Shown here piece after piece: positions 47,223 to 60,050 of a DNA stretch of 64,000 nt. Position 1 is the stretch's first letter. Every line of letters begins with the position of its first letter. Position numbers and translations under genes: made by a program. This DNA is from Eledone cirrhosa (Eukaryota), in assembly GCA_964016885.1 (NCBI GenBank), contig OZ024743.1:357368001-357432000 (forward strand), read 5' to 3'. Under the pieces are notes generated by a model. The model was not told the origin of the DNA, made no database searches, and saw nothing but the letters and a program-made list of their open reading frames with translations.

Positions 47223-47523
47223 ACACATATATATATTCTCTCGCACGCTCGGCCAAGCTGGTATGAATCTTTTCTCTCTCTCGTCTACGATTTCACAGAA
47301 CTTATGTTTACTGAATTCGCAGACCAGACCCCTTCTTCCTCCCCTTAGACCTGTGCGAAATTCCTTCCTTGCTCACATTTCAACCAGGTTTGATGGTCTT
47401 TATTCTCTCGTTCACGATTTCACCGAATTTAAATTCATAGAAATCTGGGACTTGTCTCTTTCTTCCTCACTTTCTGTTGCTTCACCATTTTGTTTGTTTA
47501 CCCCCGCGTCCCCTTTATTTACG

Positions 47524-47627
47524 TGTTCCAACGACTTTTTTTAGACGTTGCTCGCACCAACCGGAGGTATATGGTCTTTAAAGCGATGAAATGCCTATGA
47601 TGGTTGGAAGATCACTGATGAAGGACA
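47524..47627 (+). ncRNA. Candidate non-circularly permuted hammerhead ribozyme
   Basis: AGGUAU-A/UGGUCUU ... GCGA-U-GAA-AUGCCU ... AAGAUCA-CUGAUGA-A-GGACA; stems I and III pair across strands. Confidence 0.72.
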
Positions 47628-48138
47628 AACTTTTTTCATATGTAACCCATTTGCAACTCCGCAGCGCCCTTATTATCATATTTACACATATTTTTTCCTC
47701 TGCTGCTACACGTCTTTTTCGTTCTATGTATCTTTACCCTTTCTAGCAGTCTCTCTCTCTGTTAGCCTCTTCCTCACCCTTCACTCACTCATTCTCTGTC
47801 ACTACCTCTCCTCCTCCTCTTTCTTCCCGTTTGACCTGTGTGTAATTCTTTTCTCTCGCACGCTCGGCGAAGCTGGTATGAATTTTTTCTCTCTCTCGTC
47901 TACGATTTCACAGAACTTATGTTTACCGAATTCGCAGACCAGACCCCTTCTTCCTCCCCTTAGACCTGTGCGAAATTCCTTCCTTGCTCACATTTCAACC
48001 AGGTTTGATGGTCTTTATTCTCTCGTTCACGATTTCACCGAATTTAAATTCATAGAAATCTGGGACTTGTCTCTTTCTTCCTCACTTTCTGTTGCTTCAC
48101 CATTTTGTTTGTTTACCCTCGCGTCCTCTTTATTTACG

Positions 48139-48242
48139 TGTTCCAACGACTTTTTTTAGACGTTGCTCGCACCAACCGGAGGTGTATGGTCTTTAAAGTG
48201 ATGAAATGCCTATGATGGTTGGAAGATCACTGATGAAGGACA
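48139..48242 (+). ncRNA. Candidate non-circularly permuted hammerhead (second tandem copy, GUA site)
   Basis: As 47524; the two substitutions retain pairing as G-U. Confidence 0.7.
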
Positions 48243-49374
48243 AACTTTTTTCATATGTAACCCATTTGCAACTCCGCAACGCCCTTATTATCATATATAT
48301 ATATATATATATATATATATATATATGTGTGTGTGTGTGTGTGTGTGTGTGTGTGTGTGTGTGTGTGTGTGTGTGTGTGTAGGTGGTTGCATGTATGTAA
48401 AATATGGTGGTGTGAAGGGAGAAATGTAAATTTCTCTGAAAAATTAATGAGAAAAGAAAACGGTATAGAAAGACTAAAATGGATAAGATCGATCGTTTGT
48501 TAATTGTTTTTAAATTGTTGGTCATTATGACTTGGCTCGTGCTAGGGTGGCAGTCTAAATAACTCTACAGGGTAGGCTGGGGAAAGGATGTTTTCTGTTG
48601 TCATAGGTATTTATTTATGGGCAGCTGATTTTGCTGGGTAATTATACGCTTGTTGTCTCTGTAATAGAGCAGGGAGTCATTGTGTTATATGTGTGTGTGT
48701 GTATATATATATATATATATATATATATATATATATATATATATATATACAGAGAGAGAGAGAGAGAGAGAGAGAGAGAGAGAGAAAGAGAGATAAAGGG
48801 ATGGATAGATTGATAGACATACAGATAGACAGACAGATAGATAAATAGATAGATAGATAGATAGATAGATAGTCAGATAGATTGTGAACCCACGTGTTTT
48901 CAGGAAAATTAGTGTTTCATTGGTGTTTGACATATTGAATAGGGAACGATGCGCTAGAACGCGCATGTGGAAGAAGCAGGCTTTTTTTTTTCAAAGATAT
49001 AGACACATAGAGATGGGGGAGTGGTAACCCGATATATATATTTTTTTCTCTCGTCTGTCAACTAAAAACAGATATATATATATCAAAAATTAAATTGAGG
49101 GTGCCATTGTCCGAGACACACACACACACACACACACACACACACACACACACACACACACACACACACACACACACACACACACACACACACACACACA
49201 CACACACACACACACACACACACACATATATATATATATATATATATATATATATATATAGTTAAATAATAAACGTGATGACTAAAATCCGAAGATGGCT
49301 CGATAAGAATAATAAATATATATATCAAATATATAAAAACCATAGAGCAAATATTTATTAAAATAACAGATTAA

Positions 49375-49425
49375 AGTTTAAGCAAAGTACCGCTGCTTTC
49401 ACCCTTAACGGGATCTTCTGAAACT
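49375..49425 (-). ncRNA. Type I hammerhead with U4 mutated to A
   Basis: AGUUU-CAGAAGA-U-CCC-GUUAA-GGG-U-GAA-AGCAG..UUGCU-U/AAACU, with AAUAAA downstream. Confidence 0.7.
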
Positions 49426-50439
49426 AAAAAAAAAATCAATCTGTAAGCGCAGAAGTAAATATTTCGAAAAACGTTGCTTTGGTTCGTGAAGACGTTCCCT
49501 GGCAATGAACAGAAAAAAGCGAAGATAATACGTCGTTATGTGGAGCGTTGAGAACAATTACACGCAGAGACAAAGCCACGTTCGTGGTATAAATGGAGTC
49601 ATTAGACTAATATTCTATTTAGGAAACCGAATGATTCTCAGCTTCGGAGTTAAGAATAAATGTGCTGAATGAAAATGACAGAGGTTATTAAAATCATAAA
49701 AGTAGTAATATTTAAGATTTATACAATTATATATATACATACACACATCGTATATACGTAGATCTGGGAAGCAGTATTTCAAATTCGAGTGATACCATTT
49801 GCAGCTGATTATTGACTTTACAATCTCATTCGTAACACTATGTGAAATAGAAAAGGCAAATACTAGAAACAAACGTAAATCTTGAGACCAAGGTTTTGTT
49901 AAGTATGTAAATGCTTTCTAGACGAACGAAAACACTGCAGCCAATATTCAAATCTTGGGTCGTCGATGACAGGTTTTTACTTGCATCTATAAATTCTTAT
50001 ATTTTCGAAACTAGATATATCCATATAAATGCATTGTTTAGTAAACTAAGAAACAGACTTAACATCGATGAACTTGATAACCTAAGCCTCGAACTCCCAA
50101 ATTGCCATCCTAATAGTCATACTATTGTTAGAGCTGATCAGGCACAACCGGCTCCTTAACAGCGTAAACTTCTTGAATTGAAAAATAATTGATCAAGTGT
50201 TCGCAACTCTTGTATGCTTTTATCTATCTATGCTTATTTATTTACCTCCGCTACGTTAGTAAGGTAAACTATGTGATCTTATTTTCTCTTAAATATTCTT
50301 GGTAATTTATCTTTTCTTATTATTGCGTATACTACACCTGGTGAAGTATAATTTGAAAAAAAAAAATTTGTAAATGAATTAGTTTTATCTGCAAGTTACA
50401 ATCCTATAATAATCAATTTCTATGCAGTGATCATTAAAG

Positions 50440-57625: not shown

Positions 57626-58884
57626 AAGAATGACAAATTAGAAGGATTGAAGGGACGGGCAGCCCTATAACAGGTCCATTCACGTTGCCATCCCTCTCCC
57701 CACTTCTCTCTCTCTCTCTCTCTCTCTCTCTCTCTCTATATATATATATATATATATATATATATATATATATATATATATATATATATATACATACATA
57801 CATACATACATACATACATACATACATAAACACGAGAGATATAGAGAAAGAGGGAGTGAGAGAGGGAGAGGGGGGGGGGGAGAAAAAGAGGGAATTAGAG
57901 AGAGAGAGTGACATACAATACATAAATTTGTTCCCAAGATTAATTTTAGCTTGACTATATAGTTTTCTCTTTTACAGTGTTACTGGCTCCAGCTAGTGAG
58001 TGGTGAATATTTTTCTGTGCTGTGATTACTATTAAAAGAATGTTTAAGTATTATTAAGCTGATAAAAAAAAAAAAAAAAAAAAAAAAGAAGCAAGCTAAG
58101 AAGTTAAACGTATTTAAGTTTAGCGACAATGGTTCTAGTTGGCGAATTGACAGTTGTTAGAACGTCGGATGGAATTCTTTGGTGCCTTCGTTCCGGCTCT
58201 TTGAATTCATATCCCGCCGAGCTCAACTCTACCTTTCGTCCTTTTGGCTGTCAATAGATTAAAAAATGTCCAGCGTGGTGGAATAGCGGAATTGGTAGAT
58301 ACTTTCTGGGTCTTTTGCGATCCGAGTTCACCTGTGACGTCACTGGTTTCAAATTTTATCGACCGTTCCCGAAAATAACATCGATGGCGTGGAGATAGAA
58401 GGTTTTTCTCGCATAGGTGACAGCACCGTCCTCAAAACATTGCCTAGAATTGGAGAGGAACTTTTCAGGTGTAGATCCATGGTCTCACCATATACATGGA
58501 GGCTCCCAGTAAAAGAAACCCCTTGTATGTATGTATGTATGGATACCCGATCGCGCGGTTAAACCACTGGGAGTGAAGGACCCCTAGCTTTTGTCAGGGC
58601 ATTCTTCTAGGAGAAGGCAACTCAGGGAACTGGGATAACTCCGATATAAAACCTGCTTCTCAGTAGTTACCGATGATGTTGATCTTTTTTTCTTTCCGGG
58701 TTATAGCTACTGTCGCTCAGAGAGTGGGATTGGCTCAGTGCACAGGCTTTCCTCACTTAAAACAAAAATCTTCACGCACAGGCATTGCACAATAGAATTA
58801 ATTAATAATTATTAATAATGGTATATCATGCAATGGCCATATTCGATAACGAGGGGGCAGCCATTATGCATGTATATGTATAGT

Positions 58885-59160
58885 GAAGAGGCGTCTAGTG
58901 GTTATCGTGTTGGACTCATGTCCATAATGTCGCGGGTTCGATTCCTGGACCAGGTTGAGCGTTGTGTTCTTCAGCAAAACACTTTTACGCTGCTTCAATT
59001 TATACAGCTGAAAATGAGTACCGGTAGTTGCTGGGAATTAACCCTAAGATGTAATGCCGCCCTGTCCAGAAGGAAGTTTGGTACTCTCAGTTGTTTAATG
59101 CCAATAACAACCAGAATATTTACCAGCCCGATGAGCCCCCGGGCTTGTGACAGACTTTAA
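58885..59160 (+). mobile_element. SINE type 2, diverged
   Basis: tagtggtt..ggttcgattcctgg head; homologous to 36977. Confidence 0.65.
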
Positions 59161-59297
59161 CTTTAATTTATATATATATATATATATAATTATATGGTGC
59201 GTGTGTTGCTTATTGGCAACATGACCCTCCCAAAGTATAACAATATATATATATATATATATATATATATATATATATATATATATATATATATACT

Positions 59298-59447
59298 ACT
59301 GGTTTAGTTCAGATCTAGCTGCCGAAACGACCGGAGTTTAGACGTCGGGGTCCTGACTCTTTTCCTATTACCCACTCTACCACCCTAAGTATCGAGTACT
59401 CTGGTGCGTTATGGTCCACCTGGTCCCTTACCGCACTTTCTTTGTTA
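59298..59447 (+). mobile_element. Half-hammerhead short element, not folded back
   Basis: gctgccGAAACgaccggagtttagacGTCggggtcc...ggtccacctggtccctta; flanked by (TA)n. Confidence 0.75.
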
Positions 59448-59579
59448 TATATATATATATATATCGAAGGAGGCGTAACGTAAAGATCCAGAGCCGGGCC
59501 AGATCGATACAGATCGAACCTTGAGCTGATCAATAGTGAAACGCGCATCACCAATCAATAAACGTAATGAAGGCTTAAC

Positions 59580-60050
59580 AAATCGTCCTTGTATTTCTCT
59601 TACTTTCTTTCGTCCCCTTTGTCATGTCAGTTAACACTTTCTCTCTACTGACCTCTTCCTCACACTTCCACTCACTCACTCACTGTTTCTCCCCTTCTCA
59701 CTTCACCCCGTTCGAGACGAAAACAATTTCCTTCTTTCTTACATTGGATTCATCTCGAAAGGTCTAATTTCTACTCGCTCATATACTCACCCAGCTTACA
59801 CTGATAGAATAACTATGTAGCTTGTGCCTCTTCCTATCTACGGTTAGCTTTCCTCTTTGTCGTTTACTTGTCTCACTCGCTTTACGCGTTTTAATTGTCC
59901 TAATAACTTAATTTAGTTATTATTGCACCAACGTGAGGTATATGATTTTTAATGCAATGAAATATCTATGATCGTTGGCAAATCACTGATGAGGGACTCA
60001 TTTTATAACATGTTATCCATGTGCAACCTGCAGTATTCTTCTCCCCATTT
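59580..60050 (+). mobile_element. Single unit of the permuted-hammerhead repeat (third family)
   Basis: Shares cctcttcctcac..cactcactca with the 47760-47790 region and carries the full motif. Confidence 0.7.
59897..59997 (+). ncRNA. Candidate non-circularly permuted hammerhead (cleanest copy)
   Basis: AGGUAU-A/UGAUUU ... UGCAA-U-GAA-AUAUCU ... AAAUCA-CUGAUGA-G-GGAC; 5' strand GUCC-hairpin-UUGCA. Confidence 0.75.

Follow-up and report, generated by a model that had tools for sequence, protein, structure and literature searches.

A stretch of 64,000 nucleotides (nt) from Eledone cirrhosa (assembly GCA_964016885.1, contig OZ024743.1, positions 357,368,001 to 357,432,000, forward strand), called the window below and used as the coordinate system for all element positions, contains three related repeat elements, families A, B and C, which are best read from their sequence as non-coding, non-autonomous retro-repeats. 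Each carries a hammerhead ribozyme motif whose conserved blocks follow the order cleavage site, GAAA, CUGAUGA. By this block order the ribozyme is of type SGC, a non-circular permutation, and the order remains non-circular after the unit is closed into a circle. We consider it probable that these repeats are retrozymes of the kind without long terminal repeats (non-LTR retrozymes) equipped with a new hammerhead variant, and that their transcripts cleave themselves, are circularised and are copied by a Penelope reverse transcriptase (RT).

The family A array (47236..48297, plus strand), delimited by self-BLAST and concatemer mapping, comprises 1.74 units of 615 nt, with copies 97.6% identical to each other. 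Its 5' end lies at unit position +280 counted from the predicted cut, and its 3' end at a CATAT motif around +110-120, joined to the target, a (TA)n and then (TG)n tract at 48293..48380. The family B array (56814..57462, minus strand) comprises 1.16 units of 566 nt with (TA)n on both sides, its 5' end at +19 and its 3' end at +109. Family C is represented by 0.88 of a 529-nt unit (59594..60058, plus strand), which starts at +182 and ends at +115, running into (CA)n(TA)n. An earlier note on this DNA had reported arrays of about 1.7 units at 47236 and 1.15 units at 56814, in agreement with these measurements, and a single unit at 59580, which is actually the partial family C element; its unit length of about 565-615 bp holds for families A and B and fails for family C. 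Its description of pyrimidine-rich sense strands without credible open reading frames (ORFs) is borne out (65-72% pyrimidine; longest ATG-initiated ORFs of 93, 66 and 47 amino acids), as is the adjacency to (TA)n or (CA)n, since all three elements end in such tracts, and the divergence outside the ribozyme and a few short blocks (A versus C 72% over 158 nt, A versus B 70% over 115 nt). The permuted ribozyme that it placed in the three families is present as a full motif in each, although the family B copy in the window lacks 2 nt at the cleavage site. The note overlooked the fixed 3' phase, the 529-nt unit, the type-SGC identity, the splinted stem II and the kink-turn (k-turn).

We searched the whole genome (3.0 Gb, 1,796 contigs) with a 45-nt core pattern that imposes GAAA and CUGAnGA, and counted exact matches. 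There were 8,147 + 8,407 (16,554) matches, and 0 + 0 for the reversed control pattern; A, B and C belong to one superfamily that exceeds chance occurrence. This superfamily is richer than the three families first proposed: 46 full units from fetched loci, 489-639 nt long and alignable over their full length, fall into 13 clusters at 90% identity, and the longest ORFs vary widely between the full units checked. The best-scoring copies of families A and C are 92-98% identical to those of the window and family B copies are about 74-84% identical, indicating that amplification has been both recent and older. The catalytic G5 is changed in 228 matches, against the 16,554 intact ones, across many subfamily backgrounds, which suggests that ribozymes decayed once inserted, not that dead ones spread. 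A looser motif search recovered decayed members and chance matches, with no clearly new class among the 100 listed of 484.

The stems around the core blocks were assessed by covariation. From 225 matches (150 distinct) we hand-picked 28 intact, diverse representatives, 27 of which were aligned, one with a 46-nt core being dropped. In this alignment 90.6% of cells pair compared with 78.1 in shuffles, 27 of the 34 proposed pairs vary on both sides compared with 14.6, none of 500 shuffles reached this pairing and two-sided change, and slid partners pair in only 26-46%; these counts are not probabilities, because we chose the representatives by hand, they are related to one another, and it was from them that the structure was derived. 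Since the 27 aligned rows are related and chosen, 64 distinct unselected pattern matches were scored separately, for stem I, stem III, N17 and U16.1, which are not part of the search pattern, and for the P3 extension (P3ext). At least 4 of 5 pairs are formed in stem I in 63/64 and in stem III in 60/64; N17 differs from G in all 64, U16.1 is found in 59 and P3ext in 53. When each strand was paired with its own or with swapped partners, for helices X, Z, P3ext, III and I the swaps matched the own pairing in 0 of 5000 trials each, and stems I and III show covariation. The same test led us to discard an alternative in which stem Ia pairs with the tail (4976/5000), and on covariation we likewise rejected readings as a type I, II or III hammerhead or with a direct stem II. 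The U16.1-A pair occurs in all 27 representatives, whose cleavage triplets (AUA 13, AUC 12, AUU 1, GUA 1) are those of an NUH site. Rfam gave no hammerhead match on the units; this holds for the window at E<=1 and for 8 loci at the gathering threshold.

Beyond its first pair, a direct stem II is missing: none of the 64 unselected matches has two of the next three pairs, and own partners have no advantage over swapped ones (4544/5000). The 10.1-11.1 pair itself is present in 56 of the 64 and occurs as four pair types among the representatives. In place of a direct stem II there are two helices with upstream partners: helix Z pairs the strand that precedes GAAA, and helix X pairs the strand that follows CUGAUGA, whose partner lies farther upstream than that of Z. 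A conserved hairpin, Y, sits between the upstream X and Z strands. The predicted structure is thus one in which an upstream strand splints both arms of stem II through two covarying helices around a hairpin, an architecture that appears to be new. Between its two helices, stem III has a 3-nt bulge and, after it, G1b.A1n and A2b.2n. G1b, A2b and A1n are found in 27/27 representatives, which have 16 G, 10 U and 1 C at 2n; the corresponding counts among the 64 unselected matches are 62 (G1b), 64 (A2b), 60 (A1n) and 60 (G or U at 2n). As judged from these positions, the region matches the k-turn consensus, including the known exception in which A.G is replaced by A-U (PMC2790904). Stems I and III would bring together the three core blocks, stem II would go on from its single direct pair into a four-way junction where both of its arms are paired to the upstream strand, and the k-turn would bend stem III back until its far end meets stem I and the stem II branch (Z), a proximity that linkers of 1-2 nt seem to demand.

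In the window, the first family A ribozyme (47525..47626, plus strand) has its predicted cut after N17 at 47571. It opens with X' (47525-28), hairpin Y (47529-50), Z' (47552-56) and P3ext' (47557-62), followed by the k-turn strand (47563-65), stem III' (47566-70), N17 and stem Ia (47572-76). Next come Z (47582-86), GAAA (47588-91), stem III (47591-95) and the bulge with GA (47596-600), and the 3' part comprises P3ext (47602-07), stem Ib (47610-14), CUGAUGA (47615-21) and X (47623-26). The second copy (48140..48241, plus strand, predicted cut after 48186) has two differences from the first, both leaving wobble pairs. The family C ribozyme lies at 59886..60004 (plus strand), with its predicted cut after 59942. 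The family B ribozyme at 56860..56976 (minus strand), which lacks its 2 nt at the cleavage site relative to its relatives, is likely a decayed copy, and a second one (57422..57462, minus strand) is 5'-truncated, with the cleavage block and the start of GAAA missing. A scan with a covariance model built in part from the window's own copies found full motifs at 47514-47633, 48129-48248, 59886-60004 and 56860-56976 (minus), and one 5'-truncated motif at 57422-57503.

For 77 of the 82 terminal ribozymes in loci selected by pattern, a microsatellite (almost always (TA)n) is reached at +60 to +155, mainly at about +66 and +114. In family A, 31/33 arrays end at +62 to +122 (one of the others enters an assembly gap and one ends at +348), and in family C all 19 ends are at +115 or +123. 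The 5' ends of both families scatter, and arrays reach 4.46 units; the loci used for array ends were chosen as top BLAST matches and are therefore biased to long copies. Ten of the 33 family A arrays have an inverted 5' partner, the outer end of which lies in a tract in all ten and at the usual 3' sites in nine. The different start phases of the units pointed out earlier are thus a property of the 5' ends, which are variable or inverted in (TA)n, while the 3' ends occupy fixed phases. The preferred 3' sites are TTTTCATAT at about +62-72 and TATCATAT/ACACATAT at about +103-122; an internal copy of both, together with a conserved GCAAC..CGCAG block, lies at 47633..47693 (plus strand) in the family A array. 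They are internal CAUAU-like motifs joined to (TA)n, as would be expected if a nicked (TA)n primer annealed inside the RNA. The second site falls in the loop of a predicted hairpin in most of 12 units, with weak energies. At 5' junctions into (TA)n, 529 reverse-strand matches lie at +6 to +17 and 431 at -13 to +5, an approximately twofold difference per position that is confounded by TA microhomology and truncation decay and was not used. At a single locus (L370, G000:C1:46960136-46960179), an inverted arm has its 3' end at the predicted cut and is followed by (TA)n, which could mean either that priming took place at the cleaved end of an RNA or that TA microhomology was at work.

The form of the template was approached through variation within arrays and through head-to-head junctions. 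Units differ by 2.4% within family A arrays versus 3.4% between arrays, and by 1.1% versus 1.6% in family C; 63 variant sites are common to all units of an array and 11 of the variants are private to one array. This likeness fits repeated copying of one monomer followed by drift. A genome-wide search found 31 head-to-head junctions at the ribozyme, and the starts of their arms peak at the predicted cut, with 21.5/62 weighted starts at +2/+1/-1 versus 9.8 expected under a crude triangular null and with a lenient match at -1; upstream of the cut there are about 1-2 starts per position. A first parse of the junctions with stricter references showed the same region to be enriched.

The genome contains many Penelope-like elements (PLEs) with a C-terminal GIY-YIG domain after CxxxxCxxC, which is the signature of the Neptune/Nematis PLEs (Craig et al. 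2021, 10.1101/2021.04.23.441226). One abundant Neptune-like family ends in a pyrimidine tract, ...TTTCTCCCTGTTTTCA, directly followed by (TA)n, and family C ends in a similar way, ...TTCTCCCCATTTTTTCA followed by (TA)n, the shared terminus being pyrimidine-rich with TTTTCA before the tract. Two Neptune-like PLE loci (L126, L136) are outward-facing palindromes, like the inverted family A arrays. We read 50 PLE loci, from 150 scored of 10,595 GIY-YIG candidates; the SGC motif occurs in two of the 50, both times as an antisense insertion, and in none as part of the PLE itself. RT or endonuclease (EN) matches, some of them to a LINE protein, were found at 24/170 retrozyme loci, and the five inspected are set apart by TA tracts. 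No autonomous element carrying the unit was found in this small sample of 50 PLE and 170 retrozyme loci. A GC-rich antisense PLE fragment of a different family (L143:650-1894) adjoins the 5' end of a retrozyme without a TA tract.

Taken together, these data suggest a cycle in which tandem transcripts likely cleave themselves to unit length and the monomers are likely ligated into circles; ligation would be favoured by helices III, P3ext, Z and X, which bridge the cut and would keep the two ends of a monomer close. A Neptune-type Penelope RT would then likely prime on nicked (TA)n at the internal CAUAU and copy round the circle. The retrozyme and PLE reading put forward in the earlier note is partly supported in this way: it fits everything testable from DNA, the endpoints have the pattern described above, the insertion architecture resembles that of PLEs, and, in the sampled loci, we found no attached coding element of which the units could be LTRs or untranslated regions (UTRs). 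A tentative extension, which we regard as doubtful when all its parts are taken jointly, would be that the non-circularly permuted hammerhead originated independently in an animal lineage in a new fold (a strand-swapped four-way stem II with a natural k-turn), that a host protein of the 15.5K/Snu13 type at the k-turn gates cleavage versus ligation, and that the Penelope RT uses the circles as templates in the manner of telomerase, their CAUAU loops annealing to nicked (TA)n.

Several points weigh against the retrozyme cycle. Its evidence base is DNA: block order, covarying helices, the k-turn consensus, copy number, ends and arrays of up to 4.5 units are read from it, and we infer transcription, cleavage after NUH, ligation, rolling-circle copying and the identity of the RT. 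The motif has neither the canonical G10.1-C11.1 pair nor a continuous stem II, so that activity is not assured, and 10.1-11.1 is unpaired in 8/27 representatives. In long arrays the 5' ends are not clustered at the predicted cut, 278 variant sites are not common to all units of an array, and the likeness within arrays would also come from homogeneous multimer templates or from later duplication. Part of the junction peak is explained by TA microhomology and by stem I sequences that are palindromic. Many of the arms, moreover, continue across the predicted cut, from which it follows that templates with an intact or religated junction exist. The link to PLEs is architectural only, as BLAST of the three window units against PLE UTRs found no similarity, and Naiad PLEs, which were not searched in this genome, likewise target (TA)n (10.1101/2021.04.23.441226).

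One alternative, which we hold to be unlikely, keeps the same ribozyme and Penelope machinery and omits the circle. Cleavage would only trim read-through transcripts, and the tandems would come from partly uncleaved multimeric RNA, template jumps of the RT or later tandem duplication. Junction arms starting at the cut do imply some linear templates, the unshared variant sites agree with such an origin, published type-SGC ribozymes are slow (PMC10085705), and PLE insertions themselves form partial tandems (10.1101/2021.04.23.441226). What speaks for circles is the existence of arrays of up to 4.5 units with variants that every unit carries, of which 11 are confined to one array, the accumulation of related animal retrozymes as circles (PMC7229834), and the four helices across the cut, which would favour ligation. 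It is very unlikely, in our estimate, that the hammerhead-derived structure is inactive on its own and needs a protein or a dimer, or now only serves to bind the RT or a host protein: stem II has indeed been cut down to one variable pair with C11.1 mostly replaced, the motif fails the published SGC descriptor, and the k-turn consensus is that of a known protein-binding motif (PMC5061560), but G5, GAAA, the A15.1-U16.1 pair and NUH are retained despite the turnover of the stems, and junctions are enriched at the predicted cut. Even a little less credible is that the units are a terminal repeat or UTR of an autonomous element yet to be found, or are moved by the RT of a Naiad PLE or a LINE, a view that draws on the fixed 3' ends, the small share of PLE candidates read and a 2026 preprint deriving animal retrozymes from PLE pseudo-LTRs (pLTRs; 10.64898/2026.07.22.740005), and that is opposed by the antisense orientation of both motif copies in PLE loci, the TA tracts separating the five inspected RT/EN matches from retrozymes, and arrays bounded by tracts or inversions and not by ORFs.

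With respect to known systems, the closest ribozyme is HRIMA-1, described with a variant as type SGC by Eckert et al. 2023 (PMC10085705), where all the rearranged ribozymes come from metatranscriptomes. A literature search returned the term "type-SGC" from that paper only; a term search did not find octopus, mollusc or retrozyme in its text, or octopus, mollusc or metazoa in its supplement. The units share with HRIMA-1 the S-G-C order, the CUGAnGA and GAAA cores, a stem I of 5 bp, a UH cut site and a short connection between stem I and the stem II arm. HRIMA-1 has a direct stem II (G10.1-C11.1 and at least two further pairs), CGAAA and a stem I-II helix made from the linker between G and C, whereas in the units helices X and Z splint stem II from upstream, the G-C linker forms the k-turned extension of stem III, the domain measures about 102 nt, and the sequences are genomic and from an animal. 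The published SGC descriptor would miss the units because it requires CGAAA, CUGAUGA(U)G and more pairs in stem II.

As in metazoan non-LTR retrozymes (PMC7229834; 10.64898/2026.07.22.740005), the units are non-coding tandems in high, dispersed copy with one hammerhead each, GC below about 45%, no LTR features and PLEs in the same genome. Metazoan retrozymes are defined by, and were searched with, type I hammerheads, whereas these are of type SGC; their units are typically about 300 nt long (51-972 in 10.64898/2026.07.22.740005), compared with 489-639 nt here, and the present arrays are short and dispersed, with fixed 3' priming sites mapped in (TA)n. Since neither the type I hammerhead of retrozymes nor the direct stem II of published SGC ribozymes is found, the repeats appear to be a new variant on both counts, and the predicted ribozyme falls outside HRIMA-1 and the published descriptor. 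With the Neptune/Nematis and Naiad PLEs (10.1101/2021.04.23.441226) they share 5' truncation, partial tandems, inverted 5' copies and (TA)n targets, and they differ from PLEs by the lack of an ORF, the lack of detected similarity to local PLE UTRs and the hammerhead topology; in canonical PLE clades hammerheads lie in pLTRs (10.1101/2021.04.23.441226). The 600-nt scale and ribozyme-defined monomers recall plant LTR retrozymes and viroid-like circles. Unlike in plant LTR retrozymes, no LTR, primer-binding site or polypurine tract was seen, although no formal search was made, and viroid-like rod folding was not supported (circular minimum free energy z of -0.1 to -1.6 in 5 units).

A non-circular hammerhead permutation so far seen only in environmental RNA thus occurs more than 16,000 times in the genome of an animal. 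Searches with type I and published SGC descriptors cannot see this build, so counts of animal ribozymes and retrozymes are likely underestimates. How retrozyme circles avoid cutting themselves is a question left open in earlier work (PMC7229834), and a natural k-turn in a hammerhead would offer a testable answer. The mechanism of Penelope retrotransposition is described as unresolved (10.1101/2021.04.23.441226); the numerous copies, short, young and with their 3' sites mapped, provide a minimal substrate for its study.

Our literature search found no prior description of the repeats; subscription journals, Dfam, Repbase and bioRxiv supplements were outside its scope, so catalogues may already list them as unclassified families. 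The main text of an octopus repeat annotation from 2026 leaves ribozymes unmentioned. Outside the genome, the core pattern matched 22 viral and at least 119 metagenome stretches; a model scan of 100 of these stretches gave one weak match (35 bits, without the upstream helices), which we judged to be chance. Four contig sets, of unrecorded type, contain the unit and a unit-to-unit joint, compatible with both a DNA tandem and a circle. Contig sets X5 and X6, coded as two other organisms, include, at low depth, portions of the family A unit, among them the ribozyme, and represent either relatives or carry-over.

The window holds further repeats. A broken non-LTR retrotransposon lies at 52595-56247 (minus strand), with a second copy at 6841-10735 (copies 94-96% identical); it has the RT motif YMDD and a C-terminal Cys-rich region and adjoins (ATT)n. 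Pfam gave no match on two of its fragments, and it may be Dong/R4-like. A SINE-like repeat of about 190 nt, with several copies at 50439-51623, is found throughout the window, and another short repeat family stands beside (TA)n at 47095-47236 and 59300-59464, with more copies at 18699-19125, 29271-29397 and 41762-42001. Palindromes occur at 46720-46889 (perfect, centred on (AT)n) and 56365-56725. A third, 530 nt long (60987-61519), has weak Rfam HH9 matches below the gathering score on both arms, at 61330-61400 (plus) and 61106-61176 (minus), and may be an inverted terminal piece of PLE type that carries an ordinary hammerhead. Elsewhere, five loci (L092:2710, L039, L100, L113 and L117) have CUGAnGA-stem-GAAA in type I order with a short stem III, and the genome seems also to hold ordinary minimal hammerhead families.

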